A stretch of DNA of 42,292 nucleotides, taken from the sequence record NC_041897.1, one strand, 5' to 3'. The stretch's first letter is position 1. Every line of letters begins with the position of its first letter. Of this stretch, positions 24,418 to 39,402 are shown in pieces. The notes under the pieces are model-generated. The model made no database searches. It was not told where the DNA came from and worked only from the letters and a program-made list of their open reading frames with translations. Origin of the DNA: Escherichia phage K1ind1. The position numbers were made by a program, and so were the translations under genes.

Positions 24418-25838
24418 TTCTTACCTCGTCTCTTCATGTAATTAAGCAATTCTTCTTGCACAGATTTCTTTTCGTCAGTACGCGCGGCGACAACCTCGTC
24501 CAGCGTGTCTTTAGCAACGATGTGGTACAGGAACACCGGCCTCTCGTGTCCTGCCTGTTTCTGGCGGACCGGGCCTATTCGCTCGACAACCTGCAAATAG
24601 TGTTCAAGATTCCAGCCTTGCGAAATAAACGCCAGATGATGCCCGCCGTCCTGTAAATTCAAACCATGCCCGGCTGACGCAGGATGCACGCATAAGATTT
24701 CGATTTCCCCGCGGTTCCACGCTTCCATCTGCTTATTGCCCTTAGCGCCTTTGGCGAACGCCTGTGCTTGTGGGAATCGCTTAAGGATACGCTCAAGTTC
24801 GTGCTTAAACTGATAGGCTACCAGTAACGGTGCGCCCTGTAACTCCTCAACAATGGACTCAAGCGCATCCAGTTTCGTATCGTGCACTTTCTCCCAGTCT
24901 TTCGTTGCTTCGCCGTCTGGCCCGGATACATACACGGCACCGGATGCAATCTGCAGGCACTTCGACGTCTTCGCAGCAGCGTTAGCCGCTTCAACTTCCC
25001 CGCTCTCCAGTTCCGCGAATAACTTTTCCTCCATATCGATGTACGCCTGACGCGCCTTCTTCGGCAGGTCAATTTCCACTGGCACGATAATCGGCGCTTC
25101 GCAACCAAACCACTCGGCGGCGTCAATCGTGAGACTAATGTCTTTCATCTTCTGATGAATCTCATTATCCGCACCCGGTCGTGCGTGATACTCCCGCGCC
25201 ATCGCGGATTTCCCTTTCTGTACCGAGTTAAACCAGCGGTCTGTGAATGCCGTGTACGAAGAACCAAGGCGCTCGCCAGCGTCGATAAACCAGTTCTGCC
25301 CCCACAAGTCCTTGAGGCCGTTCGGCGACGGTGTGCCTGTCAGGTTAATGAAACGCTTAACCTTTCCGAACGCCACTTTGCTTAGCGCCTTAGCCCGTTT
25401 GCTTCCTCCAGAACGGCTACGGAAAGATTTCAGCTTCGTGCTCTCATCAGCAACGATAACCGTAAAAGGCCAGTCGTCTTTGCCGTAGTAGTCAATCAGC
25501 CACTCGATAACTTCGTAGTTTGTGCACACCACGTTAGCATCTGACTCCAGCGCCGCGATACGGCGCTTCTCTGAACCGGTTGCGTCTACGACACTCAGAC
25601 AGGGGAAGTTCCAACGTGCCTGTTCCGCGGGCCACGTACCTGACGCAACACGTAAAGGAGCCAGAATTAACACTCGGTCGTCGTCATTAAGTTGCCCATT
25701 ACGGAACAGCCGATTGAGAACCCACAACGTTGACCCCGACTTACCGCTGCCCATGCTCGCCCAGATATTGCAGCGATGGTGCCGCAGCATGAACGAAGTC
25801 ATGAGCTTCTGGTATTCGCGCCTTTGAAACTTACTCAT
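24414..25838 (-). CDS. superfamily-2 helicase (SNF2/DEAD-like)
   Basis: 474 aa; Walker A SMGSGKSGST, DExx box IVADESTK, motif VI-like QVVERIGPVRQKQ. Confidence 0.65.
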   Translation of the reverse strand: MSKFQRREYQKLMTSFMLRHHRCNIWASMGSGKSGSTLWVLNRLFRNGQLNDDDRVLILAPLRVASGTWPAEQARWNFPCLSVVDATGSEKRRIAALESDANVVCTNYEVIEWLIDYYGKDDWPFTVIVADESTKLKSFRSRSGGSKRAKALSKVAFGKVKRFINLTGTPSPNGLKDLWGQNWFIDAGERLGSSYTAFTDRWFNSVQKGKSAMAREYHARPGADNEIHQKMKDISLTIDAAEWFGCEAPIIVPVEIDLPKKARQAYIDMEEKLFAELESGEVEAANAAAKTSKCLQIASGAVYVSGPDGEATKDWEKVHDTKLDALESIVEELQGAPLLVAYQFKHELERILKRFPQAQAFAKGAKGNKQMEAWNRGEIEILCVHPASAGHGLNLQDGGHHLAFISQGWNLEHYLQVVERIGPVRQKQAGHERPVFLYHIVAKDTLDEVVAARTDEKKSVQEELLNYMKRRGKK

Positions 25839-26655
25839 TTACCGCCCCCATGAATGCCTTTATAAATTCAGCGGCTACTTGCGGGACGATGGCATTGCCA
25901 TAACCGCGCAATCGTCCCACTCTGGCGGGTATCCCATTAGCCAGCGGGAATGCGCCGGGTTCAACTGGCCTGAATTTTCCATCCCGGCATCCGAGCCAGT
26001 CAGTATCTGACCAGAAGCCGTGATGCGGATTGGTTGTGTTATTTTCAGACCCTGCTCCGTCGAGTAGTCCAGCCTGTCGAATGTCCTGTCCTTCCCGTCC
26101 TTGCGAATCACTGTCTCTCCGCTCCCCCTGTAGTCGTTCGCTGTCGGTGTAGGCCAATTGGTGCGCACCAAAGAAGAGCCGCTCTCTTTTGTGCGGTGCG
26201 CCGACGCTACAAGCTGGAAGTACGGCAAACCCGACGGCGTAGTCTTCTCTTTCCATGTGAATCTGTAAATCGCACATCCACGATTTTGCAATTGCTGGCG
26301 CAACCTGTTCCCCAAAGAGGACTGGAGGGCGGCACTCGCTGATGAGGTCGAGGAACACAGGTGCAAGGTGTCTAGGGTCGAACTGTCCGAGTTGCTTTCC
26401 CGCCGCGCTAAACGGTTGGCAAGGCGGGCTTCCCGTCCAGAGAGGCGCATCTTCCGGAACTCCCGCAAGTCTGAGCGCGAGAGGCCAGCCGCCGATACCC
26501 GCGAAAAAATGACACTGGGTGAACCCGTCAAGGTCTTCTGGCTTAACTTCGGTAATGCTTCTTTCATCTACAACTCCAAAAGGTATGTGACCCTGTTTTA
26601 TTAATTCACGCAGCCACGCGGCTGCACCTTTATCCCATTCGTTGTAATAGTTCAT
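25831..26655 (-). CDS. DNA (cytosine-5)-methyltransferase
   Basis: 274 aa; motif I FAGIGG, motif IV PCQPFS, ENV-like FGEQV, C-terminal motif X GNAIVPQV; short target-recognition region. Confidence 0.75.
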   Translation of the reverse strand: MNYYNEWDKGAAAWLRELIKQGHIPFGVVDERSITEVKPEDLDGFTQCHFFAGIGGWPLALRLAGVPEDAPLWTGSPPCQPFSAAGKQLGQFDPRHLAPVFLDLISECRPPVLFGEQVAPAIAKSWMCDLQIHMEREDYAVGFAVLPACSVGAPHKRERLFFGAHQLAYTDSERLQGERRDSDSQGREGQDIRQAGLLDGAGSENNTTNPHHGFWSDTDWLGCRDGKFRPVEPGAFPLANGIPARVGRLRGYGNAIVPQVAAEFIKAFMGAVNE

Positions 26656-26843
26656 TTCGCCACCAGAACTAACTCTTTACGCCCGAACGCCGTAACATTG
26701 CCCGTTACATCTTCGATAACCAGTTTACCGTTCGACTCGACGAACACCGTATCTACGGCAACAGGACGACGGGTCTTAACGTTGAAAATCATGTCGCCCG
26801 GTACGATGTCACGTGCTGGTTTGCGGTCGTATTCGTGTTTCAT
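26652..26843 (-). CDS. hypothetical protein
   Basis: 63 aa; coupled to methyltransferase gene. Confidence 0.4.
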   Translation of the reverse strand: MKHEYDRKPARDIVPGDMIFNVKTRRPVAVDTVFVESNGKLVIEDVTGNVTAFGRKELVLVAK

Positions 26844-26873
26844 TTCTCAATTCCTTATATTGTTGGTGTATGA

Positions 26874-27158
26874 CTAACTATAATAGTTCGCTATTAGGTC
26901 GTCAACCTGTTTAAACGAACCAACGACAAAAACATTTGCACCGCGTTTACGCATCCGCCCGTGCTCTCGTAGCTGGTGTGGGTCTGGCTTCGTGCTTTCG
27001 TCTTTCTTAACCTCAACGAACCAGATGATGCCGCCGGGGAGAATTACCAGCAGGTCGGGGGCGCCCACTCTATTTTCGTACGACAATTTGCGTACGAGGC
27101 CCCCCAGGGCCTCGAATCGCTCTTTTGCGTATTTCTGTACGCGGCCCTCTTTAGTCAT
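26874..27158 (-). CDS. VRR-NUC domain nuclease (PD-(D/E)xK)
   Basis: about 94 aa from ATG 27158; GAPDLLVI ... VEVKK motif arrangement typical of VRR-NUC. Confidence 0.55.
   Translation of the reverse strand: MTKEGRVQKYAKERFEALGGLVRKLSYENRVGAPDLLVILPGGIIWFVEVKKDESTKPDPHQLREHGRMRKRGANVFVVGSFKQVDDLIANYYS
26877..26905 (-). promoter_or_regulatory. sigma70-like promoter TTGACG-17-TATAGT with AATAG-N4-CTATT palindrome in spacer (26882-26895)
   Basis: read on minus strand; lies inside the last codons of the VRR-NUC gene; drives 26843 and downstream genes. Confidence 0.45.
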
Positions 27159-27307
27159 GAGCGCAGAACCCAAGTAAGGAAAGCCCCTCCGAGAACGGCA
27201 ACGCCCACAAACTTAAAGAACAGGCCGTAACAGAACATCGCGGCTATTCCCGCACCGAGTAACAGCGCGAGCATGGTTACTATTGACCTAAATACAAACA
27301 TCTTCAT
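27155..27307 (-). CDS. small hydrophobic membrane peptide (50 aa, below ORF-track cutoff)
   Basis: ATG with GGAGG RBS; single predicted TM helix; stop overlaps VRR-NUC start (ATGA). Confidence 0.3.
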   Translation of the reverse strand: MKMFVFRSIVTMLALLLGAGIAAMFCYGLFFKFVGVAVLGGAFLTWVLRS

Positions 27308-27389
27308 AACACGCACCCCTCCCGTTTTGTATGCTCAATACCGCAGCGCGGGCAGATTCGGCAGTCTTCTTCATAGAACCAGTAAATTT

Positions 27390-27521
27390 TCATTCCAGCA
27401 CCCACAGATAAATTGCAACTAACATACACAATACGGCGACCATCATGCCGTATTGCCCCTCATGACAGTAGACACCCGCGGCGAATCCCGCCAGTACCGC
27501 GATAATCAGTTTACTTAGCAT
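27390..27521 (-). CDS. small hydrophobic membrane peptide (43 aa, below ORF-track cutoff)
   Basis: ATG overlapping polymerase stop; hydrophobic throughout. Confidence 0.25.
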   Translation of the reverse strand: MLSKLIIAVLAGFAAGVYCHEGQYGMMVAVLCMLVAIYLWVLE

Positions 27522-29613
27522 AACGCTTCATCTCCGCACCTTCTGCTACAAGAGGGAACCCCTCAGCCCATTCCGGTAATTCGCACATCAACCGCTCAAG
27601 CTCTGCAACATTGTATTCTGGTAAATCTGGTGTCTCGCAGATAATCTCATCGTGTACGTGAAGCACAATCGGATAGCCGTTTGCTTCTACGTTAAGCAGC
27701 GCATTAGCCAACAAATCACGGCACAGCGCCTGAGTGCAGTTTTCCACGAGTTTACCGGAATATGTGTACTGGAAGCCCCACTGCCGTGTTAACTGGTTTT
27801 CGCCCTGGTACTTGATGCGGACGTTAGTGGACACCTTCCCGTCTTCGTCTGTCTCTTTCGACACGCTTAACCCGACACCTGGATAAGACATAACGCGGCC
27901 CGACGGCAACGTCATGCGCAACCACCAACCGGCGACTTTGTTGCCGTTGTTATCTGTCTCTACGTTACGCGAAAACTTAACGCCGCGAGGCCCTGCAGTG
28001 AACTCTTTACCTGGATTGCGGATAGCTGCCATAGCTGCGTCTTCAATATCCCGCCAGAAAGCTACTGTTTCAGGGTGAGACTCCCGCCACATACGCTTGA
28101 TGGCGTCGCATGTACGCCACACTTTCTTGTCCAGAATATATGATGGTCGGTCATCTTTTTCACCGGGACGTGGCGGTCTCTTGGCTTCCTGAATACGCGC
28201 CCACTCATACCCACGCGCGGTAGCGGCCCAGATGTGGTCGGGGAAAGTCCCGTCCATTGTTTTTGCCATATCAACAAGGTCAAGGCCGAGGTTCTTGGCG
28301 AACTGTACGAATGCGCCGACACCACCCGCGTAGCCAAGTCCCAGTTCGCATGCCTTACCAATCTGGCGTAAGTCTTTACGTTCTTTCTTAATGTAATCCG
28401 GCTCCATACCGAACATCTTACCCGCGGTTACGCAGTAAATATCCAGTCCGGCACGGAACGTATCTAGCGCGGTTTCTTCCCCCGCCAGCCACGCAAGCCC
28501 GCGGCCTTCGACGTTAGAGTAATCGGCAACGACAAACTTATGTCCAGTTTCCGGTATGATGCAGCTACGAACGGTAGATGCCGTTAGCTTGGCTACGTCA
28601 AATCGACGATGAGCGCGGCCCTTAAGTAACGCAGAAATTCCTTTATCCAGTTCATCATCGTGATAGTACCCGCGCGCGAGGTTCTGCGGCTGGAAGCCTT
28701 TACCTGCAAACCGTAACGTACGCTTAGCTCCACCATATTGTATGCAACCGCGACGGCGGTCGTCAGAAGAGCGGCCCAACAACAGCGGGTTATATTTCGT
28801 TGACGCGGTAGACGCGGCCCCGAGTCGCATCTCGATAATCGCGCTGGCGTCGTCCGGTAAATCGTCGTCAGCAAGCAGGTCGTTAAGCGTTGACTTCTGT
28901 GCGTTGTGAATACGGTGCGCCGGTGCGAGTTCACGCAGAATAGGAAGGAAGTCCTTTCCGGTAAGCGAGCCGCCGTATTTACGTTGGGCTTCTTCCTGTA
29001 ACTGCGCTTTGTGTTTCTCCACGGCTTCAATCGCGGCTTCCGCCAGTGCAACGTCAACCTTAAACCCGCGGTCGTTGATTAACTGGTCCAGTTCCAGCAC
29101 ACGGTCTTCGAACTCGGAGTTGCCCCAACGTGGCAGCTTATGGAACACTTCACGCATCGCGGTGATGTCGCTAACGGCGTACTTGATGAACAGCGCCCAC
29201 TCATCCGGGTGCGTTTCAGCAGTGTAGCGGCGGATTTTGTAGTTCTTCGGTGTCGGTTTAGAAAAACGCTGAATAAGCGCTTTGCCTCGTTTGTCTTTCG
29301 CGTTGTCTGCGGACACGCCAAGCACTTCGCACAATGCGTCGAGTGAACCCGGCAGCGCGTGACGAAACGCCCAAATCATCGTATCAATGGTGTTGCTTAC
29401 GGGAATATCAAAACCCCAGCAGTGCTTCATGATGAGTCTGTCGAACATTGAGCCGTTGTGCCACACCATCTTAATACGGCTGTTTGGTTTCACCAGACGG
29501 CGTAACGCGCGGTGCAAATCACCCGGCATGTCGCTGCCGTTGGTGCAATCCCATACCTGCACAGGCTCGTCGTCAAAAGCATACGCCGTGTGACACTTCA
29601 ATCGCATCGGCAT
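27511..29613 (-). CDS. DNA polymerase, family A, with 3'-5' proofreading exonuclease domain
   Basis: about 700 aa; exo motifs FDDEP, HNGSMFD, YAVSD; polymerase motif A DYSNVEGR, motif B RQIGKACELGLGYAGG, motif C HVHDE. Confidence 0.85.
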   Translation of the reverse strand: MPMRLKCHTAYAFDDEPVQVWDCTNGSDMPGDLHRALRRLVKPNSRIKMVWHNGSMFDRLIMKHCWGFDIPVSNTIDTMIWAFRHALPGSLDALCEVLGVSADNAKDKRGKALIQRFSKPTPKNYKIRRYTAETHPDEWALFIKYAVSDITAMREVFHKLPRWGNSEFEDRVLELDQLINDRGFKVDVALAEAAIEAVEKHKAQLQEEAQRKYGGSLTGKDFLPILRELAPAHRIHNAQKSTLNDLLADDDLPDDASAIIEMRLGAASTASTKYNPLLLGRSSDDRRRGCIQYGGAKRTLRFAGKGFQPQNLARGYYHDDELDKGISALLKGRAHRRFDVAKLTASTVRSCIIPETGHKFVVADYSNVEGRGLAWLAGEETALDTFRAGLDIYCVTAGKMFGMEPDYIKKERKDLRQIGKACELGLGYAGGVGAFVQFAKNLGLDLVDMAKTMDGTFPDHIWAATARGYEWARIQEAKRPPRPGEKDDRPSYILDKKVWRTCDAIKRMWRESHPETVAFWRDIEDAAMAAIRNPGKEFTAGPRGVKFSRNVETDNNGNKVAGWWLRMTLPSGRVMSYPGVGLSVSKETDEDGKVSTNVRIKYQGENQLTRQWGFQYTYSGKLVENCTQALCRDLLANALLNVEANGYPIVLHVHDEIICETPDLPEYNVAELERLMCELPEWAEGFPLVAEGAEMKRYAK

Positions 29614-30658
29614 CTTTCCACGCACGATTACCCGGGCGGCCTTCTACCAGTTTGTACCCTGGCACTTTCTTACCGGAATGCAATGCGGCGGACATCGCTT
29701 TCTCAACCTTGTCGATGTGCTGGCGCAACAGCGGCAACTTCTCATACTCAACTACGAGTTGCTCCGTCGTCAGTTCCAGCACAAAGTCGTCTTCAAGTTC
29801 TTCCGCCAGTACAGAATTAACCGTCTTTGTACGCGCGGCACACTGTTCAGAGAACCGGCACCACTGACAACCATCGACCGACGGCTTGAAGTCCGATGCT
29901 TTCAGGTTCTTCTTACCGCGGAAATACGCATCGAGCGCTAACAGTGCGCGTTTCTGCGCAAACTTAGCGAACAGTTCCAGGCCTTCAACAGAGATATCCC
30001 ACTCTGACGCACCGCCAGCATACGGCTGGAAGATGACCAGACGGACAACTGTGACGTTATAACGTCTCTTGAGTCGGCGATAAACACTGAGAGCGTAAAG
30101 CATAAGCTGCTTGTTTTCTTTCGCTTCGACACGGTGCCGTCCGGTTTTCAGGTCTCCGATAATGAGCATGTGCTCGTCTGTGTTCGCCAGTTCCTGAACG
30201 GCAACAAGGTCAGCAGTTCCGAATGTCTCAACGCCTTCGTAGCCTGGATGCAATACCTCAGTAAGATTTACCCGCATCTCCAGCTTTGCGTAAGTTGCAA
30301 CGTCGATAATCGCTTTGCAGTAGTCGGTGTACTTGCGCACCTGTTCAATCATGTCGGCGGTAATCAGTACCGAGCCTTTCATTGGGCTGATTAGCGCCTT
30401 AATCTGGCCTTTTCCTTCATCCAGTACATACGCGCCAACTTCACGCGCTAACGGCAGCGCGGTGCCTTTGATGTACTGGTTAAGGTGCATCTCAGCTATG
30501 GTGTGCATAGCTGTGCCTAATACCGCCGCTTTACCTGACGTGTTAGGAATATCTTTTTCACAGGCCAGTGATGCGGGGCAGGTTAACCACTTTTTAGCTC
30601 CAGACGGCGACAGTAAGGCGTGCACATCGTTATTGCCGCCGCGTTCTTTTAGAATCAT
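29573..30658 (-). CDS. Cas4/RecB-like PD-(D/E)xK exonuclease with Fe-S cysteine cluster
   Basis: 361 aa; N-terminal Cys (TCPASLAC), GDLKTG and QxxxY-like nuclease motifs, C-terminal CQWCRFSEQC. Confidence 0.65.
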   Translation of the reverse strand: MILKERGGNNDVHALLSPSGAKKWLTCPASLACEKDIPNTSGKAAVLGTAMHTIAEMHLNQYIKGTALPLAREVGAYVLDEGKGQIKALISPMKGSVLITADMIEQVRKYTDYCKAIIDVATYAKLEMRVNLTEVLHPGYEGVETFGTADLVAVQELANTDEHMLIIGDLKTGRHRVEAKENKQLMLYALSVYRRLKRRYNVTVVRLVIFQPYAGGASEWDISVEGLELFAKFAQKRALLALDAYFRGKKNLKASDFKPSVDGCQWCRFSEQCAARTKTVNSVLAEELEDDFVLELTTEQLVVEYEKLPLLRQHIDKVEKAMSAALHSGKKVPGYKLVEGRPGNRAWKDADAIEVSHGVCF

Positions 30659-31002
30659 CGTACCGCCTCCAAATACAAGTTTAATGCCTGTAACTGTCCT
30701 TCTGTGGGAATGAAAGAATCATCACGATGTAAGTCACTTAACTGTTGCAGCATCCCTGCGAACTTACGTCTTGCGTCAACTGACACCATGTGATGCTTTT
30801 CACTTTTGTATATTAATGTTTTTGGGTAATCCTCAAGCCTGCCGGACGATTTATTCACGCGGAGCGTCCGCTCTTCATGCGCAATGTGTATGTACTTTTT
30901 GCCATTTTGTAGCACAGTAGCTGCGCCACTGTTCTTTCTGCGGTCGCCGACGGTGTAAACCTTGTCACCGCTGCGCAAATTAAGCCACCATTTATCCGTC
31001 AT
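30655..31002 (-). CDS. hypothetical protein
   Basis: about 115 aa from ATG 31002 (ATGA overlap with upstream gene). Confidence 0.4.
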   Translation of the reverse strand: MTDKWWLNLRSGDKVYTVGDRRKNSGAATVLQNGKKYIHIAHEERTLRVNKSSGRLEDYPKTLIYKSEKHHMVSVDARRKFAGMLQQLSDLHRDDSFIPTEGQLQALNLYLEAVR

Positions 31003-31271
31003 ACCCTGTTCTCCCACTGGTCAATTAAATGTCGTGTCTTATGGTCGCAGTGCATAGCCCAGCCATACATCGACTCGAAGACGTAAAAGTCCGGTTTGGC
31101 GAAAGTCGTGCGCTTAATCTGCGACACGTGACGGCCTATGTCTTTAGGCCGTGGCACTTTGCCTAAGTACGCCATATCTTCCATCTGGTGTGCACCGGAC
31201 GGCGCACGCAATAACCATAGCGCCTCTGTGTTATCCCGCCGGTCAACGGCGCGGTATAGTTGGTAAATCAT
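30999..31271 (-). CDS. hypothetical protein
   Basis: 90 aa ORF in leftward operon. Confidence 0.4.
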   Translation of the reverse strand: MIYQLYRAVDRRDNTEALWLLRAPSGAHQMEDMAYLGKVPRPKDIGRHVSQIKRTTFAKPDFYVFESMYGWAMHCDHKTRHLIDQWENRV

Positions 31272-31314
31272 AATCCCGACCCTCAGTTAAAGCGGCCCGA
31301 AGGCCGCGGGATAA

Positions 31315-31833
31315 TTATTCTTCTTCGAAATACTTGTTCTTGATTGCCGTCAGGCGTTCCAGGTATTCGGCAAGGTCTTCGTCTTTAATCGCGGCAATCT
31401 TCATCTTCTTACCGGTGAACTCTTCCAGCAGTTCATCGGAATCATCGCACGCGGCGTCGCTCGGACCTTCGTTAATTGCATCGTCGATAGCCTGAATCTG
31501 GTCACGCAGAGACTGGTAATCTACTTCTTCCTTCTCTTCCGGTTCTGGCGTCGGTTCCTCTACTTTAGATTTACGCGGCTTGCGTTTCGGCTTCTCTTCT
31601 TCTGCTGGTTTAGTGTCGACGATGTCTTCACCTTCAACCGGGATTTCTTTCGCCTTCTCGACTTCTTCAAGTGCTTTAGCCAGTTCTTTTTTAACTGTCT
31701 CTACCCCAGTTACCGCGACGTCAACAGTCAATTCACCTACAGATTTGCTAGTCGGTTGTTTCACACTGTTTGCAGCAATCAGTTCGTGGGCGACTACGAA
31801 ACGTTCCAGTAATACCAAGAATTTCTCTAACAT
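31315..31833 (-). CDS. hypothetical acidic protein
   Basis: 172 aa; E/K/P-rich central linker, acidic C-terminus; first gene downstream of leftward promoter. Confidence 0.45.
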   Translation of the reverse strand: MLEKFLVLLERFVVAHELIAANSVKQPTSKSVGELTVDVAVTGVETVKKELAKALEEVEKAKEIPVEGEDIVDTKPAEEEKPKRKPRKSKVEEPTPEPEEKEEVDYQSLRDQIQAIDDAINEGPSDAACDDSDELLEEFTGKKMKIAAIKDEDLAEYLERLTAIKNKYFEEE

Positions 31834-31865
31834 TTGTTTCTCTCCTCTCGTTTGGTATGTGTTAA

Positions 31866-31894
31866 ATATAATAGCGAACTATTCACGTTGTCAA
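31866..31894 (-). promoter_or_regulatory. sigma70-like promoter TTGACA-17-TTATAT with AATAG-N4-CTATT palindrome in spacer (31870-31883)
   Basis: consensus -35 on minus strand (plus 31889-31894), -10 at plus 31866-31871; upstream of 31833 gene. Confidence 0.5.
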
Positions 31895-31914
31895 TGGGCT
31901 TTTCTAAAATAATT

Positions 31915-31928
31915 AATATGGTACTATT
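31915..31928 (+). promoter_or_regulatory. imperfect copy of the palindrome (AATAT-GGTA-CTATT) upstream of Cro-like gene
   Basis: 45 bp from the perfect copy at 31870; followed by AAGGAG RBS and ATG 31959. Confidence 0.4.
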
Positions 31929-31958
31929 CACATATCAACTGACTAAGGAGTAATTGAC

Positions 31959-32174
31959 ATGCAACCATCTGAACTAGGCATCCGTGTAGAACAGCGCCGT
32001 AAAGAACTCGGCATTTCCCAACGCCGTCTGGCTGTCCTGGCCGGTGTTTCCCAGGGCGCGATTAACCAGCTGGCACTCGGTGTAACTAAGGACGTCCGCC
32101 CAGCGACGCTGTTTAAACTGGCGGAAGTGCTGCAAGTAGATGCCAAGTGGCTGGCGTTCGGTGAAGGGGCTTAA
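31959..32174 (+). CDS. HTH XRE-family (Cro/CI-like) transcriptional regulator
   Basis: 71 aa; RRKELGISQRRLAVLAGVSQGAINQL helix-turn-helix; AAGGAG RBS; followed by terminator. Confidence 0.7.
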   Translation: MQPSELGIRVEQRRKELGISQRRLAVLAGVSQGAINQLALGVTKDVRPATLFKLAEVLQVDAKWLAFGEGA

Positions 32175-32190
32175 CGCCCCTTTCTTTTTG
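32164..32190 (+). terminator. rho-independent terminator
   Basis: GGGGC-TTAAC-GCCCC hairpin followed by TTTCTTTTT. Confidence 0.55.
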
Positions 32191-32191
32191 C

Positions 32192-34450
32192 CTATTCTAA
32201 ATCCTCCTCTGTCACTGTTAACAGTTCATTCGGTTCGTATATCGTCTTCGGTCTTAATCTGTCCCCCATCTTTTCAGGTATCCGGTATGTGCCTGGTATA
32301 ACTTCACCGTTAACATCGCACCCGAGCATCAACTCACCGTCTTTCAGCATCTTCTCAAGATGGTGGTTGGTGATGGCGTGGTCCCCCGAGTTCGCCACTA
32401 TCTGCCGTTGGGTAAAACCTCGTCCGGTGTCGTCGGACTGTTGCAGGTCTTCCAGCGCGGCGAGTATTGATTCCTTACGCCCTTCATCCTTCCCGCGTTT
32501 TACAGCATTCTTTACGTTTTCTTTACCTTCTTTAGTTAACCCTTCTTCCCGCTCCTTCTCCTCGTCAGTTTTGAACGGCTCGAAGCCCCACGGCATCAGC
32601 ACAAGCGCCTTGTGCGGCTCAGGCAGATCGAGGTTTACGATTGTGCCGTATTCCTCTGTGCTACCGAGGAACTCAACCGCACGGTATTCTTTCGGAGGCG
32701 GGGCTTCACGGAACTGTACCGACTCCAGAACCATGCCAACCGTTTTCTGTTGAGGCCCATGCTTAAATTTCGAGTGGTATACGTTTATCTGGCGGTCGGT
32801 AGCGCGCTCAATTGTCAGCTCCACATCAACACCTGCATACAGCGCCCCGCTACCACGGGCTTTCTTTCCACCCTTAGGCGTATGGTGGACGACACCCACA
32901 GCGGCTTTAGTCGCATCACGTACTTCTTTCAGGATGGCGATAACTTTACCCATACCGATTGCCGTTGATGAGCTGTTCTCGTCGAACTTATCAATCGTCA
33001 GGGCCAGCGTCTGGTTGAGGGTATCGAACGCGACCATACCAATAGGCTCGTCCCCTGCAGCTTCACGCATCCTGCGGATTAGCGCGGGGATTTTTTTATC
33101 ACCATGCGCGGCGAGCACCTCACCCATATCAATGACATGTACGTAATCTTTACCTTCCTCGCCGTATTTAGCCGCGAGCGCGTCAATACGTGTGCGTGTA
33201 GCTGCGCCTCCCTCACCGTCGATATAGAAATGGTGGCAACGCTGGGTATCCGCCCCGGCAAACCGGTATCCGGCGGCGCTCAGGTACATCATCCCCAGCG
33301 TATAGAACGATTTGTACGTACCAGATTCCCCGACAATATCCCAGATGCAATCAGACGGCATGTACCCTTCAACGACGAAATCGGCCTTTACCGGTTCTGG
33401 TAACTCGTCCTCCTCTGAGTCCTCGTCGTCTTCCAGGTCATCCAGGCTGCATGAGACAGATTCACGCGCGCCCCAGCCGATAGCCTCGGCCACTTCACTG
33501 AACGGCAGTCCGGTCGCATCACACGCGTATTTCCACACTTCTTTCGGGGGCATTCCTTCGGTCGCGGCAATGTCGGTGTCGTGAATCATGGTTACGTTCG
33601 GCGCTTCGTATCCCTCGCGCGGGAAACATAACAGGAAGTCGTCCGGGCGTGGTGTCGGGTCGCTGTAGTTTTCTGCGTGTTCTGGCGTAGCTGGCATCTT
33701 AAGGCCACGCGGCGTCATGATGCCGCCGTACTCGAATGCCAGTGCTTCAAACGCATCTGTAAACGCGGTGCGCAGTTCTTCCGGTATCTGGTAATCAGAT
33801 GCGCTGCTGATGTCAACGGCTGGGACGCCTTCCAGTAACTCATCAGGGTCAATCAGGTCGTTGCGGCGCGACCAGATAACGGTAGCGCCGACAGGAGGCA
33901 AGTACATCGGCTGCGAAAGAGTGAACCCGCTGCGGTCGGCGCCCATGCCTTTGAAGAAGTGCTCCAGCAATCCATGACGAACACGAATGATGTCACCGCC
34001 CTCAACCGTTCGGGCCAGCGGCATGACGACGCGAAAGCGCGGGGCTTCGTCTGTGTGTGATGCCGTGGTATAGAGGCACATCGCCCGCCGGCTGCGCTTA
34101 ACCAGGCGCACAGCTTCCTGATACTCTTCCAGGGTTGCACTGTCAAAGTCCAGGTACGCCAGCGACGATTTGCTTACAGACGCGTCGCAGCGATAGAAAA
34201 AGCCTTTACGCGCTTGCTTAAAGTCACCTGTTTCCGGGTCTTTTACGGTGCTGTGCGTAGAGTCGCACGCAGCGGTGATGTAACCAGGCGCGGTCTTCGG
34301 GTTAATTCCGTCACGGACAGCATCAAGCGGCTGGATTAAATCTTTCAGGTCGTCCAGCGTTGCCGTGTGTGTGGTTCTGACGTTTATATCCTTTTTCTCG
34401 GCCCGCGCGTTGCGACGAGACCACGAGTAGGATAAAATTACATCGGACAT
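32192..34450 (-). CDS. DNA primase / replicative helicase-like protein (primase N-terminal region plus RecA-like ATPase)
   Basis: 752 aa; central Walker A GESGTYKS with downstream Walker B-like hydrophobic-DE; largest replication protein. Confidence 0.6.
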   Translation of the reverse strand: MSDVILSYSWSRRNARAEKKDINVRTTHTATLDDLKDLIQPLDAVRDGINPKTAPGYITAACDSTHSTVKDPETGDFKQARKGFFYRCDASVSKSSLAYLDFDSATLEEYQEAVRLVKRSRRAMCLYTTASHTDEAPRFRVVMPLARTVEGGDIIRVRHGLLEHFFKGMGADRSGFTLSQPMYLPPVGATVIWSRRNDLIDPDELLEGVPAVDISSASDYQIPEELRTAFTDAFEALAFEYGGIMTPRGLKMPATPEHAENYSDPTPRPDDFLLCFPREGYEAPNVTMIHDTDIAATEGMPPKEVWKYACDATGLPFSEVAEAIGWGARESVSCSLDDLEDDEDSEEDELPEPVKADFVVEGYMPSDCIWDIVGESGTYKSFYTLGMMYLSAAGYRFAGADTQRCHHFYIDGEGGAATRTRIDALAAKYGEEGKDYVHVIDMGEVLAAHGDKKIPALIRRMREAAGDEPIGMVAFDTLNQTLALTIDKFDENSSSTAIGMGKVIAILKEVRDATKAAVGVVHHTPKGGKKARGSGALYAGVDVELTIERATDRQINVYHSKFKHGPQQKTVGMVLESVQFREAPPPKEYRAVEFLGSTEEYGTIVNLDLPEPHKALVLMPWGFEPFKTDEEKEREEGLTKEGKENVKNAVKRGKDEGRKESILAALEDLQQSDDTGRGFTQRQIVANSGDHAITNHHLEKMLKDGELMLGCDVNGEVIPGTYRIPEKMGDRLRPKTIYEPNELLTVTEEDLE

Positions 34451-34508
34451 GTTATATTTCCTTCAGCAAGTAATTTAGCCTCGGCGTTCACCGCGTCGGG
34501 GCTTTCTT

Positions 34509-34742
34509 TTATTCCAGGTCTTCTAAAGTAGCGGTCATTCCGCGAACTTCGGCAACAGCACTATATTTCCCGCCAACATTTTTCACGACACCAGATTTAA
34601 CCAGTACCTTCAACGACCCTTCAATAATGGCGGAACTATAGTACCTAAAATAACTACGGCGCAAGTCCATAACGCTGCACGACCCTTTTTTACGGGTTAA
34701 TGAAACGACTGCCGTAAATACGCGGGACTGGAACTCGGTCAT
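34509..34742 (-). CDS. hypothetical protein
   Basis: 77 aa; coupled downstream of AlpA-like gene. Confidence 0.35.
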   Translation of the reverse strand: MTEFQSRVFTAVVSLTRKKGSCSVMDLRRSYFRYYSSAIIEGSLKVLVKSGVVKNVGGKYSAVAEVRGMTATLEDLE

Positions 34743-34909
34743 TTTACATTCTCCTTAATCCACGCTTCCACTTTCTCCGGGTCGAAAGTACCCGGCTGCC
34801 GGCGGCCCATAATACGGATACAACAATCCGGGAACTTCCCACTCTTTAACCAGTTATTCAGCGTGCGACGGGTAACCCCAATACGCTCGGCTACTTCATT
34901 CTGTGTCAT
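34739..34909 (-). CDS. AlpA/excisionase-family HTH DNA-binding protein
   Basis: about 56 aa from ATG 34909; MTQNEVAERIGVTRRTLNNWLKSGKFP ... EKVEAWI pattern typical of AlpA-like regulators. Confidence 0.5.
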   Translation of the reverse strand: MTQNEVAERIGVTRRTLNNWLKSGKFPDCCIRIMGRRQPGTFDPEKVEAWIKENVK

Positions 34910-34941
34910 TCTCAAACCCCCATTATCAGTTAACGAAACCA

Positions 34942-34970
34942 AGTATACATTGCGAATAATGGGAAATCAA
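34942..34970 (-). promoter_or_regulatory. sigma70-like promoter TTGATT-17-TATACT
   Basis: read on minus strand about 30 nt upstream of AlpA-like ATG. Confidence 0.4.
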
Positions 34971-35343
34971 ACATAATCGCACCTATTGACATTATGGAAA
35001 TCTTCGTTTAAGGTGCTTCTGTATCTTAGTTACTTTGATTCTTGTTCACCTTGTAAAACCCGCCGAAAACGAGCGCCCAACGCGAAGTGTTAGGCGGCAG
35101 TTTACTGAACATTCGAATTATCGTAACTTTCCTTCCTAAGTATCTCCGGTTGCCATGGGCAAGCTCTATTCCCATCGGCGGAATATATCTTAAGTATCTG
35201 ATTTTCTTAAAGTGCCGTAGATTCGCAACCGTAAAAATGTAACGATTATTGGGCAGGCTTAGGGCCTGCCCTTTAGTTACCAAGTAATAAGAATAAAGGC
35301 ACAACCCTACCTGAAGAATCACAACGGCAACGTAACTAATCTC

Positions 35344-35372
35344 TTGCACACCCCAACATAATAGGATACTAT
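35344..35372 (+). promoter_or_regulatory. sigma70-like promoter TTGCAC-17-TACTAT with AATAG-N4-CTATT palindrome (35360-35373)
   Basis: conserved cassette CTTGCACACCCCAACATAATAGGATACTATTCAC; GAGGAG RBS and ATG 35407 downstream. Confidence 0.5.
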
Positions 35373-35406
35373 TCACTTATCGAAACGAGACAGAGGAGTG
35401 AGGGTT

Positions 35407-35589
35407 ATGTTTAAGAATGGTCAGTTGGTGAAAACAAAGCGCAGCCGGCAACACGTAATAGTTACCAAAGACGAGGATGAATATGGTGTTGTCGCCGTAT
35501 TTAGCCTTATACGGAGGAAACATGGTTATGTTCGTCACGATAATTTAGAACTCATCGGCAACAATTTTAAATTCAAAGGGGCGAAGTGA
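35407..35589 (+). CDS. hypothetical early protein
   Basis: 60 aa from ATG 35407; first gene after promoter. Confidence 0.4.
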   Translation: MFKNGQLVKTKRSRQHVIVTKDEDEYGVVAVFSLIRRKHGYVRHDNLELIGNNFKFKGAK

Positions 35590-35777
35590 TGGGAGAATTA
35601 ATTTACGACGTATACGTCGACGGGGTCATAACAGAGACAACAAGTAATAAAGATTACGCAATAAAGCGGTATGTGTATTATGCCGCAGTGGTAGGAAGGA
35701 TGGTAGAAGTGCGGGAGCAAACGGCATCGAATCATGATGCTTGTGCCGACGACTCTGAGGGAGGTCGCCGTGAATAA
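35589..35777 (+). CDS. hypothetical early protein
   Basis: 62 aa; ATG overlaps upstream stop (GTGATG). Confidence 0.35.
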   Translation: MGELIYDVYVDGVITETTSNKDYAIKRYVYYAAVVGRMVEVREQTASNHDACADDSEGGRRE

Positions 35778-35812
35778 GTTTATTTTATCGCCGCTTATGT
35801 GGAGCACGAGTT

Positions 35813-36007
35813 ATGGGGGTTGATATGAGCCCGTATAACGAATTCCGCTTACGCCGTCTGGTTGGGGGTATGCGCGCCGCCGAGTTCGGTGTTGAATGCC
35901 GGGAAAAGGAGGAATACACCCCCTGGAAGTCGTGGCATTTGGCTCATGCCAAGTATTGTGAGTACAAGTTAAACAGTTTCCTTAAGCACCACGGAGTTGA
36001 GTTATGA
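35813..36007 (+). CDS. hypothetical early protein
   Basis: 64 aa ORF. Confidence 0.35.
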   Translation: MGVDMSPYNEFRLRRLVGGMRAAEFGVECREKEEYTPWKSWHLAHAKYCEYKLNSFLKHHGVEL

Positions 36008-36192
36008 GTAATTACGATGCTACTAAATTCGACCATGCGTTTTTGATTAACAAGTTCTATGAGCGTTATCCGCTATCCGAGTTTAAAACAGATTCTGAAC
36101 GCGCCGATGCTCTGGGCTATTTTATGGCGGGTGCCGAGTTGCAGCGACTGGGCGCGTTCATCGAGTACTGGGAAGAAGACGAGGAGTATTGA
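36004..36192 (+). CDS. hypothetical early protein
   Basis: 62 aa; ATGA overlap. Confidence 0.4.
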   Translation: MSNYDATKFDHAFLINKFYERYPLSEFKTDSERADALGYFMAGAELQRLGAFIEYWEEDEEY

Positions 36193-36195
36193 GTT

Positions 36196-36339
36196 ATGAG
36201 AGAAGCATTCGAACGGTGGGCCGTCGTCGAGGGCCTGCCGGTTAACAAGGGTTCAAAGAAAGAGTACCTGAACGTTAAGACCCGTCTTGCGTGGCGGGCG
36301 TGGAAAGCTGGCGTGCAATCTGTGATGAATAAGGGGTGA
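36196..36339 (+). CDS. small hypothetical protein (47 aa, below ORF-track cutoff)
   Basis: ATG with GAGGAG RBS; fills gap between flanking ORFs. Confidence 0.35.
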   Translation: MREAFERWAVVEGLPVNKGSKKEYLNVKTRLAWRAWKAGVQSVMNKG

Positions 36340-36342
36340 TTT

Positions 36343-36537
36343 ATGGGTGAGTGGATTAAGTGTAGTGAGCGGATGCCGAACGAAGAAGATGTTTTGGTTT
36401 ATTGTTCAGATACAAAAGAGCAGATGGTGGGGTTTCACAAAGGTAAAGGGCTATTTCAATTCTTTTACATGAATGGTGTTGAGGGGGTATGTGAACCAAC
36501 ACACTGGATGCCGTTACCCGAGCCGCCAGAAGTGTGA
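36343..36537 (+). CDS. DUF551-like protein
   Basis: 64 aa; WIKCSERMP ... WMPLPEPP pattern characteristic of the phage-associated DUF551 family. Confidence 0.5.
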   Translation: MGEWIKCSERMPNEEDVLVYCSDTKEQMVGFHKGKGLFQFFYMNGVEGVCEPTHWMPLPEPPEV

Positions 36538-36671
36538 TGTTCAATAGTTTGGGATTTTATTGAGTGACTTACGCTGCTACACAGCAGCGTACAACTTTAA
36601 CTTAGTGTCGTCAAAAGGCGACACTTTCATCAAACGCAACAATCGAAGCGACTATTGCAGGAGATGCAACA

Positions 36672-36845
36672 ATGATTACTAAAGAACAGGCTGAACGACT
36701 AATAACGTTAATCGACACGATGATTGACGTAAAAACCGATTTAGCAACGGCAACAGAGGAATCCGCTACCTGGTCGCTTGAAGAAAGAGAAGCAGAAGCG
36801 GAAAGGGAGTTACTTGCGTTCATCGACTCTATAACACACCAATAA
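36672..36845 (+). CDS. small hypothetical protein (57 aa, below ORF-track cutoff)
   Basis: ATG with AGGAG RBS; competes with a low-complexity antisense ORF. Confidence 0.3.
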   Translation: MITKEQAERLITLIDTMIDVKTDLATATEESATWSLEEREAEAERELLAFIDSITHQ

Positions 36846-36852
36846 AATTTAC

Positions 36853-36881
36853 TTGCACACTAAGATAGAATAGGCTACTAT
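36853..36881 (+). promoter_or_regulatory. sigma70-like promoter TTGCAC-17-TACTAT with AATAG-N4-CTATT palindrome (36869-36882)
   Basis: second plus-strand copy of conserved cassette; GAGGAGAG RBS and ATG 36913 downstream. Confidence 0.5.
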
Positions 36882-36912
36882 TCATTTACACAAACGAGAG
36901 GAGAGACGGAAG

Positions 36913-37128
36913 ATGTTTAATGCAGTGGCGAGATGTTTTCACGCAATTTTCGGTGCTCCGCAAGAAGTATGCACCAAGCATAAATTTGTACTGTCTTGCG
37001 TGGTAGGGGATGAGTTTGATGGGTTCGATAAACTGTTGGTTTGCGACCATTGTGGGCAAGAAGCCATTAAGCACGCAAACGGTAAATTCGAACTAATTAG
37101 CGAGGAAGGGGACGGTGATGGTGAGTAA
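36913..37128 (+). CDS. small Cys-containing protein, zinc-ribbon-like
   Basis: 71 aa; C-x-x-C-like pair CDHCG plus upstream Cys; acidic tail. Confidence 0.4.
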   Translation: MFNAVARCFHAIFGAPQEVCTKHKFVLSCVVGDEFDGFDKLLVCDHCGQEAIKHANGKFELISEEGDGDGE

Positions 37129-37630
37129 CAAAAACGAAGTATTCGAGCACCTGATTGACCAGCTACGGCATCAGGTAAATAACAACCGGTGCGAAGACCT
37201 GGCGCATGAGGTGCAGATTAAGGAGTTGCGGGAAGACAACATTAAGAAATCTGAGCACATATCGCACCTGACCGGGCAAGTTAAGGAGTTGCGTCTGGCA
37301 TTGGCCGAGGCTACTGGTGACGTGGAGGCATACAAACTTATCCGCAAAGGTGCGTACGGTTCGGAGCAATCTGGTTGCCGAAAAGAAGATACGCAGGAAT
37401 GTGACCACAATTGGATTATCGCTCCAGGATTGTTTATTGCCGAAGGCCACAAGGACAACGTGCCCGGTAGCCTGTTTTGCTGCGAATGCGGCAAGCGTGA
37501 GTGGGACGGACTTGAGTATGGGGCAACAGCCTGTACACAGGAGTGCAAACACAGTTTCTATTATGTAATAACAGATGGCTCCGCGCCGTTCGGTACGAAA
37601 GTATGTAAAACGTGTGGGGAATACTTCTGA
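37115..37630 (+). CDS. hypothetical protein with coiled-coil N-terminus and Cys-rich C-terminus
   Basis: 171 aa; CCECG and CKTCG pairs. Confidence 0.45.
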   Translation: MMVSNKNEVFEHLIDQLRHQVNNNRCEDLAHEVQIKELREDNIKKSEHISHLTGQVKELRLALAEATGDVEAYKLIRKGAYGSEQSGCRKEDTQECDHNWIIAPGLFIAEGHKDNVPGSLFCCECGKREWDGLEYGATACTQECKHSFYYVITDGSAPFGTKVCKTCGEYF

Positions 37631-37833
37631 TGACCAGCATCTTATTTATCTGGGTACTGTCGGCGGGCCAGATGCAACTAGCGGCATCGGAAACGTTTTA
37701 TTCGATGGAGGCGTGCCAGTCAGCGGCACGCGCCGCAGAGAACGCGCACTTTCTGTTTCAGGGTGACAAGCCCAACGATTCAGAGGTACGCGCTATCTGC
37801 TCACCTAAGCGACTTGGTAAACAGGAGAAATAA
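37630..37833 (+). CDS. small protein with N-terminal signal/TM segment
   Basis: 67 aa from ATG 37630 (ATGA overlap); MTSILFIWVLSAG hydrophobic N-terminus. Confidence 0.4.
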   Translation: MTSILFIWVLSAGQMQLAASETFYSMEACQSAARAAENAHFLFQGDKPNDSEVRAICSPKRLGKQEK

Positions 37834-38126
37834 TGTCGTTAGCAACTGACATCCTGAAACGAAGCGGCCTTGCGCCGCTGTCGCCGAGAGCGAATACGCG
37901 TATACACAAGCGCCGCCGTAATGCACTGTACCCCGAGATTCAGGCCAGACGCAAAGCGGTACGCGCCTGCGGATTCCAGAACGGGAAGGCTGTGAATCTC
38001 GGTGAGTTTAAAACACAGGAACGCGCAGCAATCGCTAATCGGCTATTTAATTACTGGAAATCGCTTGGATACGATGATATTCCGACGAAACCACAGAGAC
38101 GACAATACATCTGGCGCCATAAATAA
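37833..38126 (+). CDS. hypothetical basic protein
   Basis: 97 aa; R/K-rich. Confidence 0.4.
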   Translation: MSLATDILKRSGLAPLSPRANTRIHKRRRNALYPEIQARRKAVRACGFQNGKAVNLGEFKTQERAAIANRLFNYWKSLGYDDIPTKPQRRQYIWRHK

Positions 38127-38156
38127 ACCGTTATTAAGATAATTCCTAACCGTGCT

Positions 38157-38196
38157 ATCCTCCAGTTACTGCATACTTAATACGCACCTGGAGGAT
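38157..38196 (+). promoter_or_regulatory. hairpin sequestering the holin Shine-Dalgarno
   Basis: 9-bp stem ATCCTCCAG / CTGGAGGAT with 22-nt loop; 3' arm contains GGAGGA RBS located 6 nt before TTG start at 38202. Confidence 0.4.
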
Positions 38197-38201
38197 TCAT
38201 C

Positions 38202-38510
38202 TTGGATAAATTTACTGAAACAGTGACGGGGTGGCTTCTCGCCGCCGCACTGGTCGGTGGATTGGTCGGGCTAAGACAACATAAAAAGTCTATATCCGGG
38301 CCGATTGACGGACTGGTATTTCTTCTCACCGGCTTCGCGTGTGCTATTTTCGGTGCACCTCTTGCCGCTCAATGGTTCGGTATTACCGGTGAGCGTGAGA
38401 TAGCTGGCCTCGGATTCATCATTGCCATTCTCTGGATGCCTATCTATTCCCGCCTTTCTGGCATCGTATCGGGTGGCGATATTGCCCGCCCAGGAGGACC
38501 GCATGACTGA
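38202..38510 (+). CDS. holin-like membrane protein
   Basis: 102 aa; TTG start; three predicted TM segments; immediately upstream of endolysin. Confidence 0.5.
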   Translation: MDKFTETVTGWLLAAALVGGLVGLRQHKKSISGPIDGLVFLLTGFACAIFGAPLAAQWFGITGEREIAGLGFIIAILWMPIYSRLSGIVSGGDIARPGGPHD

Positions 38511-38775
38511 GCTATTCTGGTTTGTCACAATGCTTTCAATGGGCGCTTCGTCCCTGTTCAACGTGTATAATGAACGCGTGGACGACGGGCTGTTCGGGCG
38601 TGTTCTCTATATCCTGACTGCTATCGTCTGTGCCGCCGGATGTATTCACCTGTTACAGGGCAGCATGTCGCCTACGCTGCCTGAGACATTAATCACATTA
38701 GTCGCGCTGCGCCAGATTCGCCAGGCGTGGCTGTCATACGGAGGACATAAGCGTGTCTCGAAATATTTCAGATAA
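38503..38775 (+). CDS. second holin/antiholin-like membrane protein
   Basis: 90 aa from ATG 38503 (GGAGGA RBS); two to three hydrophobic helices; overlaps endolysin start. Confidence 0.4.
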   Translation: MTELFWFVTMLSMGASSLFNVYNERVDDGLFGRVLYILTAIVCAAGCIHLLQGSMSPTLPETLITLVALRQIRQAWLSYGGHKRVSKYFR

Positions 38776-39238
38776 TGGATTGCATTTCTGTGCCGCGTTC
38801 GAGGGATTCCGCGGAACTGCGTATCGCGCTACGCCGAACGAGAAGTACCTGACTATTGGTTATGGTCACTACGGGCCAGACGTAACACCAGGTAAGACCA
38901 TCACACCAGGACAGGGCTTGCTGTTACTGAATCGCGATATGGCTAAGGCTGTAGCTGCTGTTGACGCAGCAGCACACCATTCGCTTACACAGGCACAGTT
39001 CGATGCGGTGTGTGACCTGGTCTATAACGTGGGGGCTGGCGTGATTTCGGCTACTACCGGTACAGGTAAGGCACTGCGCTCCGGTGATATCGCGACGTTA
39101 CGGGCTAAGCTGGCGCTGTTCATCAACCAGAACGGCAAACCACTACTTGGCCTGCGTCGCCGTACAGCCGGGCGTCTGGCGCTGTTCGACGGTAAACCGT
39201 GGCAAGAGGCTGAGGCTATCGGTAGGGCGGTTAAATGA
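38753..39238 (+). CDS. endolysin, GH24 lysozyme (T4/lambda R-like)
   Basis: 161 aa; catalytic-region pattern HFCAAFEGFRGTAYRA ... IGYGHY typical of phage lysozymes. Confidence 0.75.
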   Translation: MSRNISDNGLHFCAAFEGFRGTAYRATPNEKYLTIGYGHYGPDVTPGKTITPGQGLLLLNRDMAKAVAAVDAAAHHSLTQAQFDAVCDLVYNVGAGVISATTGTGKALRSGDIATLRAKLALFINQNGKPLLGLRRRTAGRLALFDGKPWQEAEAIGRAVK

Positions 39239-39396: not shown

Positions 39397-39402
39397 ACCA
39401 AT

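Follow-up and report, generated by a model that had tools for sequence, protein, structure and literature searches.

Promoter-overlapping AATAG-N4-CTATT dyads in Escherichia phage K1ind1 as probable operators of the phage's own 434 Cro-like protein

Escherichia phage K1ind1 (sequence record NC_041897.1), whose 42,292-nucleotide (nt) stretch was analysed as a whole and is called the window below, carries a 14-base-pair (bp) palindrome, AATAG-N4-CTATT, in exact or near-exact form at seven promoter-like sites, two of which lie beside a lone gene for a 71-amino-acid (aa) helix-turn-helix protein of Pfam family HTH_3. The comparative analysis presented here suggests that these dyads are probably the operators of that protein, a homologue of phage 434 Cro, in a phage that has no CI repressor and no lysogeny module. 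Judged from its sequence the phage is a Kagunavirus (Guernseyvirinae), as positions 30000-36000 align over 86% of their length with Escherichia phage P AB-2017 at about 98% identity and match hundreds of Kagunavirus and Jerseyvirus genomes at 80-95%. Two papers on the genus, including PMC9825357, describe Kagunaviruses as lytic, strictly virulent siphoviruses without lysogeny genes. The layout below was taken from the annotation of the closest relative together with Pfam scans of the window's open reading frames (ORFs); no Rfam families or tRNAs were found in the window.

1 to about 24000, plus strand: structural genes
11380-13791, minus strand: leftward island of four genes
24032-31833, minus strand: leftward replication and nucleotide-metabolism genes
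31959-32174, plus strand: lone HTH_3 (Cro/XRE-type) gene, 71 aa, the proposed binder of the dyads
32163-32183, plus strand: terminator-like hairpin, GAAGGGGC..GCCCCTTT, then a T-run
32192-34909, minus strand: leftward helicase-primase operon
34739-34909, minus strand: HTH_17 gene, rival candidate binder, with a likely ATG at 34909 (56 aa)
35407 to the end, plus strand: small genes, lysis genes and packaging genes

The HTH_3 gene forms a monocistronic unit made up of its own dyad-bearing promoter, the gene and a terminator, with the hairpin overlapping the last HTH_3 codons and lying between this gene and the convergent helicase-primase gene. The unit stands back to back with another dyad-bearing promoter, and two dyads flank the divergent promoter pair beside the HTH_3 gene. 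All seven dyads overlap promoter-like sites that face a start codon 29-53 nt away, and they are listed here with their predicted promoter elements and the genes that they face.

13806-13819, leftward, class A: exact dyad AATAGTACCCTATT; -35 TTGCAC at 13835-13830, -10 TACTAT at 13812-13807; faces, on the minus strand, a superinfection-immunity-like gene (ATG 13776, GGAGGG ribosome-binding site), with phosphoesterase-like, HAD/PNKP-phosphatase-like and weakly AAA-like (184 aa) genes further on in the unit
26882-26895, leftward, class B: exact dyad AATAGTTCGCTATT; -35 TTGACG at 26905-26900, -10 TATAGT at 26882-26877; faces, on the minus strand, a 63-aa gene, a C5-methylase-like gene and an SNF2-type helicase gene
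31870-31883, leftward, class B: exact dyad AATAGCGAACTATT; -35 TTGACA at 31894-31889, -10 TATATT at 31870-31865; faces, on the minus strand, a 172-aa gene, a DUF2800/PD-(D/E)XK nuclease gene and a DNA polymerase A gene
31915-31928, rightward: imperfect dyad AATATGGTACTATT in the promoter of the HTH_3 gene; TG at 31919-31920, TACTAT at 31922-31927
35360-35373, rightward, class A: exact dyad AATAGGATACTATT; -35 TTGCAC at 35344-35349, -10 TACTAT at 35367-35372; faces, on the plus strand, a run of small genes from ATG 35407
36869-36882, rightward, class A: exact dyad AATAGGCTACTATT; -35 TTGCAC at 36853-36858, -10 TACTAT at 36876-36881; faces, on the plus strand, the gene at 36913-37128 and the following genes toward the lysis cassette
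39519-39532, rightward: one-mismatch dyad ACTAGTTGACTATT; -35 TTGACT at 39524-39529, N17, -10 TATATT at 39547-39552; lies just past the terminator after the lysis genes and faces, on the plus strand, a small gene starting at 39586

The sequence-only reading that preceded this analysis had reported the five perfect copies, at 13806, 26882, 31870, 35360 and 36869, as well as the imperfect copy at 31915-31928, and had noted that the copy at 31870 is the exact reverse complement of that at 26882; all of these proved to be as described. A genome-wide count returned five exact palindromes against 0.06 expected, a number reached in none of 100 dinucleotide-preserving shuffles, and in an unbiased count over the window AATAG-N4-CTATT ranked first among all 5- and 6-bp inverted repeats with spacers of 0-8, the sole comparable inverted repeat being a GCCCC-N4-GGGGC terminator stem. 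The shuffles and this ranking rule out a chance origin of the dyads. A role as RNA hairpins was likewise rejected from the sequence, because transcription is predicted to start downstream of the dyads and a stem formed from them would have only five AT-rich pairs.

One-mismatch matches to the palindrome number five, with about one expected when up to one mismatch is allowed. They include the imperfect copy at 31915 and the newly found seventh copy at 39519-39532, which is conserved in relatives. The match at 2776 overlaps a start codon, and those at 4404 and 20909 were rejected as real sites and are read as chance, since their palindromes are not conserved in Jerseyviruses. Adjoining the 4404 match, at 4389-4400 in the intergenic region before the spanin genes, CTATTCGAATAG contains both half-sites inside-out; this arrangement is not conserved in Jerseyviruses either and is probably also due to chance.

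Promoters were predicted from consensus and conservation, with the consensus scan covering 24000-42292, where 26882 and 31870 are among the best promoter-like sites. The overlap with promoters that the sequence-only reading had claimed is real at all copies, in three forms and with no -35 at 31915; the dyads occupy three registers, -19 to -6, -25 to -12 and -40 to -27. In class A (TTGCAC-N10-AATAGGnTACTATT-CA; 13806 on the minus strand, 35360 and 36869 on the plus strand) the predicted -10 TACTAT lies inside the dyad, which spans -19 to -6. Class B (26882 and 31870, both on the minus strand) has the form TTGACR-N4/5-dyad followed directly by ATAGT or ATATT, such that the -10 begins at the last dyad base and the dyad spans -25 to -12. 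At 39519 the dyad covers the -35 and spans -40 to -27. The HTH_3 promoter at 31915 reads AATAT-GG-TACTAT, that is T-15 G-14 n TACTAT, an extended -10 whose TG motif takes its T from the mismatched base of the left half-site. The spacers between the promoter hexamers measure 17-18 bp, most leaders share AACGAGAGGAG-like ribosome-binding regions, and the 26882 dyad lies within the last codons of the upstream ORF and is therefore not strictly intergenic. Given these three registers relative to the -35 and -10, the dyad is not simply part of the RNA polymerase recognition sequence.

The conservation of the half-sites points in the same direction. Orthologous promoter regions were aligned without motif preselection, using 23-34 Kagunavirus sequences per site, and across the ten half-site columns only 8 of 1750 cells (0.46%) deviate from the majority. 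The four central dyad columns deviate in 7.1% of cells and the 10-nt flanks in 6.5-7.6%, even though the flanks include invariant promoter hexamers. At 31870 all 34 of 34 sequences have identical half-sites, with the centre taking six forms and a stretch of variable sequence, 4 or 5 nt long, separating the -35 from the dyad. In relatives a variable spacer precedes the constant dyad at 36869, and the dyad at 39519 is nearly invariant in 23 sequences beside a variable spacer, its left half-site standing upstream of the -35 and remaining invariant while its neighbours vary. Even the imperfect AATAT at 31915 is shared by every one of the 34 aligned sequences, and AATAT together with TGn-TACTAT is also kept in a relative whose HTH_3 protein is only 77% identical. 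The class-B left half-site, at -25 to -21, occupies spacer positions that sigma70 does not read base-specifically. Conservation in such positions indicates that the half-sites are under selection of their own.

Comparison between genera was made with 50 IMG/VR loci fetched via the HTH_3 protein and several complete genomes, the Cornellvirus-like set consisting of phages VSiP and St162 and four further contigs. The two dyads divide as follows (kb, kilobases).

Kagunavirus, 606 kb scanned: AATAG-N4-CTATT 148, TATTA-N6-TAATA 2
Jerseyvirus, 285 kb scanned: AATAG-N4-CTATT 43, TATTA-N6-TAATA 0
Cornellvirus-like, 146 kb scanned: AATAG-N4-CTATT 0, TATTA-N6-TAATA 9

Jerseyvirus sites always carry an extra outer pair, T-AATAG..CTATT-A. 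The Cornellvirus-like TATTA-N6-TAATA stands at promoter-like positions, some of them orthologous, as in TTGCAA-N6-TATTAGTGTCGTAATA-T, and it differs from the Jerseyvirus form by a mirrored change, TAATAG to TATTAG in one half-site and CTATTA to CTAATA in the other. Jerseyviruses and Cornellviruses both infect Salmonella enterica, so that different dyads occur in a shared host and the motif follows the phage lineage and not the host. Together, the mirrored half-site change and the lineage pattern argue for a phage-encoded binder of twofold symmetry, presumably dimeric, and against a host factor. That the dyads are sites of a host transcription factor exploited by the phage is accordingly very improbable: Kagunavirus (E. 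coli) and Jerseyvirus (Salmonella) do share the motif in hosts that share most regulators, and many enterobacterial regulators typically have AT-rich dyads in promoter regions as their sites, but Jerseyvirus and Cornellvirus differ within one host species (43 against 0 and 0 against 9), and the motif is not known to match any of the classical E. coli operator consensus sequences that we considered.

The 71-aa protein encoded beside the divergent promoter pair is the likeliest candidate for such a binder. It matches Pfam HTH_3 (E 1.1e-12), its closest relative by sequence among proteins of solved structure is phage 434 Cro (71 aa; residues 6-68, E 1.7e-7), and its identity to the Cro of phage HK633, itself 434 Cro, is about 43%. 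An AlphaFold2 model with a predicted local distance difference test score (pLDDT) of 78 places helices at 5-17, 21-28, 32-39, 48-57 and 62-66, and the top Foldseek match of the model is again 434 Cro (2cro, template modelling score 0.73-0.79). The helix-turn-helix VSQGAINQLALG recurs without change in 14 Kagunavirus variants and in more diverged ones (75-85% identity), bar one natural G-to-S variant at the equivalent of 434 residue 29, which keeps the same dyads. Dyads of 14 bp with variable centres also occur in the HK633/434 control region and in the Hafnia phage Meifeng, which carries a second homologue and the dyad ACAG-N6-CTGT, and the dyad geometry in the window is therefore that of its closest characterised relatives. 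All three genera encode an HTH_3 orthologue, and its residue 27 (434 numbering) is S in Kagunavirus and Jerseyvirus and T in Cornellvirus, matching the grouping of the motifs; this residue is the only one of the recognition-helix positions compared that does so.

Likeness to 434 extends from the protein to its sites. The two proteins have the same length and align in full, with 434 Cro the best match in both sequence and fold, and the 434 OR and OL operators (ACAA-N6-TTGT) are likewise 14 bp long with conserved outer bases and a variable centre, overlap promoter elements, and accompany a gene that lies beside a divergent promoter pair. In the 434 complex, Gln28 reads the outer adenine. This glutamine is conserved in the window protein, and the window dyad starts with A. 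The systems differ in other respects. The half-site is AATAG here as opposed to ACAA, the control region has only two operators in place of three adjacent ones, with five more dispersed on separate promoters, and the window phage, from a genus that is strictly virulent according to the literature, has no CI partner, integrase or lysogeny module. A lambdoid immunity region is thus not what is found: the annotation of the closest relative contains no CI or integrase, the gene divergent from HTH_3 encodes a 172-aa protein of PHROG 3127, and the two dyads of the control region do not make up a tripartite OR. The features of Cro/CI-type regulation that were found are the five-helix HTH_3 fold, short dyads with a less constrained centre, and the overlap with promoters, that of the protein's own gene included.

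Half-site conservation, the registers, the mirrored change and the homology to 434 Cro, as judged from sequence and model, thus lend support to the earlier proposal that the dyads are operators for a dimeric helix-turn-helix regulator with the Cro-like protein as a candidate. From these observations we infer the HTH_3 protein as the binder, its binding as a dimer, the resulting repression and its timing. After DNA entry, host sigma70 RNA polymerase would start at the seven promoters, including the extended -10 of the HTH_3 gene. The HTH_3 protein would then accumulate and occupy every dyad in dimeric form, placing a recognition helix on either AATAG half-site, with the central 4 bp left uncontacted as in 434. 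Such a dimer would cover the -10 (class A), the spacer up to the -10 (class B) or the -35 (39519), and we propose that its occupancy of these elements blocks RNA polymerase. Replication, nucleotide-metabolism, superinfection-immunity and small early genes would be turned down, and the protein's own promoter would be repressed last, via its conserved weaker operator (AATAT). The extended -10 requires as part of its TG the very T that makes this half-site imperfect, and with the weaker operator autorepression would be expected only at higher protein levels.

Other regulators offer partial parallels. Lambda and P22 Cro resemble what we propose in being small repressors that are made early and later lower early transcription from PL and PR, their own included. 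Lambda Cro has a different fold from the window protein, and the lambdoid proteins form half of a bistable switch, whereas the protein here would be a one-way timer or homeostat. The C proteins C.AhdI and C.BclI, which appear at Foldseek ranks 7-11, are small stand-alone HTH_3 autoregulators that act via dyad sites, and one dyad-bearing unit of the window contains a cytosine-methylase-like gene. Their similarity is, however, weaker than that of 434 Cro, with none in the sequence search at E <= 0.01, and no partner nuclease gene was identified in the window. C-boxes, moreover, come in pairs near the -35 of a single operon, through which this operon is at first activated and later repressed. A system like the one proposed here is to be expected in kind and is not surprising in principle.

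Several observations weigh against the HTH_3 protein as operator-binding repressor, or against its simplest form. The recognition helices differ between Kagunavirus (SQGAINQ) and Jerseyvirus (SQSLITH) despite the same core dyad, and at positions 29 and 33, which read bases in 434, Jerseyvirus resembles Cornellvirus despite the different dyad of the latter; a simple helix-to-base code consequently fails to explain the motif split. The 39519 promoter leads toward the packaging and structural genes, so that a pure early shut-off is too simple, and the HTH_3 protein may be a global damper more than a strict timer. The comparison loci were all fetched via the HTH_3 gene or the promoter sequence, so that no genome lacking HTH_3 served as a control, and a scan of viral contigs with the class-A promoter pattern returned mostly contigs already obtained via HTH_3. 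A search with the recognition helix through a protein word index returned only Kagunavirus-like contigs, and no prophage outgroup with this helix was found when back-translated VSQGAINQLA was scanned against 100,044 species genomes, the one match being spurious, in an unrelated 441-aa Pseudomonas gene. In the literature on promoters and regulation of Kagunavirus, Jerseyvirus and the Jersey-like MB78, we found no experimental study and no binding or expression data. Finally, the distribution of the HTH_17 protein also parallels the motif split. HTH_17 was confined to the two genera with the AATAG core, Kagunavirus and Jerseyvirus, between which it is 80% identical, and is absent from both complete Cornellvirus-like genomes, where the dyad is different.

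This parallel distribution, the differing HTH_3 helices and the likeness between Jerseyvirus and Cornellvirus at positions 29 and 33 keep alive the alternative that the dyads are bound by the HTH_17 protein or by another small phage protein, which could be a repressor, a MerR-style activator, or a Q/AlpA-style antiterminator that loads onto RNA polymerase and reads through intrinsic terminators toward the late genes. The antiterminator form is favoured by the report of 13-23 predicted intrinsic terminators in related phages. The loading sites of the AlpA antiterminator and of lambda Q also lie between the -35 and -10 of their target promoters, and both systems resemble the window in having a short spacer element at few promoters and many terminators (PMC7969949). 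Those elements are not dyads, however; the AlpA site, GGGACG-N5-GGTA, is non-palindromic (PMC7969949), in contrast to the perfect dyads of the window, and in class A the dyad covers the -10 itself. The label AlpA-like that the sequence-only reading had given to the HTH_17 protein was not upheld, as the protein matches HTH_17 and no Phage_AlpA at E <= 0.01, and no sequence match to a solved structure was found at E < 0.4, so that it does not match AlpA. With a length of 56-67 aa depending on the start, and in its 56-aa form almost entirely a helix-turn-helix domain, the protein presumably lacks both the RNA-exit-channel segment of AlpA and the dimerising coiled coil of MerR. MerR-type promoters have spacers of 19-20 bp, as opposed to 17-18 bp here, and neither the class-A dyads over the -10 nor so small a protein fits that type. 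The element also persists in the absence of HTH_17: in one Kagunavirus contig (L025) two unrelated ORFs replace the gene and six exact dyads remain, and the Cornellviruses, which have no HTH_17, still carry their related dyad at promoter-like positions. The earlier suggestion of this protein as a binder is thus disfavoured, and we regard binding by HTH_17 or another small phage protein as unlikely.

A second alternative holds that the motif is a phage-specific promoter consensus read by RNA polymerase, with no regulator involved and with the dyad symmetry incidental to TACTAT and a conserved spacer. This was in effect the published view of the element. In the Kagunavirus fBC-Eco01 the 20-mer tgAATAGTa-ccTATTat-T, which is the same sequence element as the window dyads, was found in seven copies by PHIRE and labelled as phage RNAP (RNA polymerase) promoters, with no link made to dyad symmetry, operators or a Cro-like protein (PMC9825357). 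The class-A right half-site is indeed largely the -10 hexamer, with a G at -14 in the centre, and the common leader means that the promoters could be copies of one cassette. Against this stand the three registers relative to the hexamers, the symmetrical change of both half-sites in Cornellviruses, and the invariance of half-sites outside the hexamers, both in the class-B spacer, where adjacent bases vary, and upstream of the -35 at 39519. As for a phage polymerase, the annotation of the closest relative lists none, and the 14 largest ORFs scanned (at least 349 aa) gave no match to an RNA polymerase family; this set leaves out the 416-aa ORF at 1-1251, whose counterpart in that relative is annotated as a terminase. 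We therefore consider a regulator-free promoter consensus decidedly improbable. The element itself has been recorded before; its reading as an operator of a Cro-like regulator is new for this phage group.

The published label of phage RNA polymerase promoter calls for correction, as no such polymerase gene was found in the scanned ORFs or in the annotation of the relative. Among phages of E. coli and Salmonella, Kagunaviruses and Jerseyviruses belong to those isolated most frequently for therapeutic and biocontrol use, and the analysis yields a map of seven predicted promoters, their putative operators, a 71-aa candidate regulator and a natural specificity variant in Cornellvirus. Knowledge of the operators matters for phage engineering, for example for inserting a payload without breaking early control, and the promoter-operator pairs could serve as compact orthogonal repressible parts. 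A farther-reaching and doubtful extension is that the Cro-like protein is a master regulator of a strictly virulent subfamily with split operator specificity, AATAG-N4-CTATT in Kagunavirus and Jerseyvirus and TATTA-N6-TAATA in Cornellvirus, such that a resident infection silences a superinfector of the same class. Were this true, the early promoters of a same-class relative would be shut and those of the other class would not, which would amount to immunity-group behaviour without lysogens.

Further dyads related to those of the window occur in its relatives. At 29449-29584 the window is without about 1.4-1.5 kb that is carried by P AB-2017 and another relative. The absent segment holds the C-terminal part of the DUF2800/PD-(D/E)XK nuclease gene, a gene whose syntenic counterpart in Jerseyviruses is annotated as DUF2815-family, an HNH gene and the beginning of the DNA polymerase A gene, and it also includes a further class-B promoter with a dyad (TTGACAcctgAATAGTTAGCTATTATAGTT), the eighth, which most relatives possess. 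The ORFs flanking the gap now overlap by 53 nt, and the gap is either a natural deletion or an assembly fault. Seven related contigs have an extra exact dyad without a -35 and with no equivalent in the window, preceded in most of them by two direct repeats of GGTGTAACAGGT and followed in all of them by a GCTGCT..AGCAGC hairpin, at these positions.

L006: 14595
L009: 5998
L021: 14663
L025: 14662
L027: 14567
L028: 14750
L034: 13351

Two further segments of the window stand out in the comparison with its closest relative. At 30655-31017 a 120-aa ORF with a weak, sub-cut-off Pfam match to the phage ProQ C-terminal-like domain lies within a segment of about 340 bp that is missing from P AB-2017. 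Between the HTH_17 operon and the 35360 promoter, about 400 bp at 34943-35343 have no gene annotated in the closest relative and no Rfam match, and contain terminator-like hairpins at 35251-35271 (plus strand) and 35096-35074 (minus strand).

Promoter-like sites without a dyad were also seen. The helicase-primase operon, which includes HTH_17, has the putative promoter TTGATT-N17-TATACT at 34970-34942, and two conserved regions lie upstream of the capsid and tail genes; dyad-free sites of this kind could drive late expression. A count of GGAATAWTT, representing a GGAATA-type late motif, showed no significant enrichment in the window. Upstream of the scaffold and capsid genes, the region 5140-5200 consists of GGAATATTCTGGAATAGTTGCCTT-N7-TGGAATAATTTATTCTTGACA followed by a CCGGGTGGCCCGG hairpin; this dyad-free stretch, conserved in all three genera, may be a late promoter or a regulatory region. 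At 13838-13856 the extended -10-like element TGATAGAATAATTTTGCG points toward the tail-chaperone gene at 13944 and diverges from the dyad promoter at 13806; its conservation extends to the Cornellviruses.

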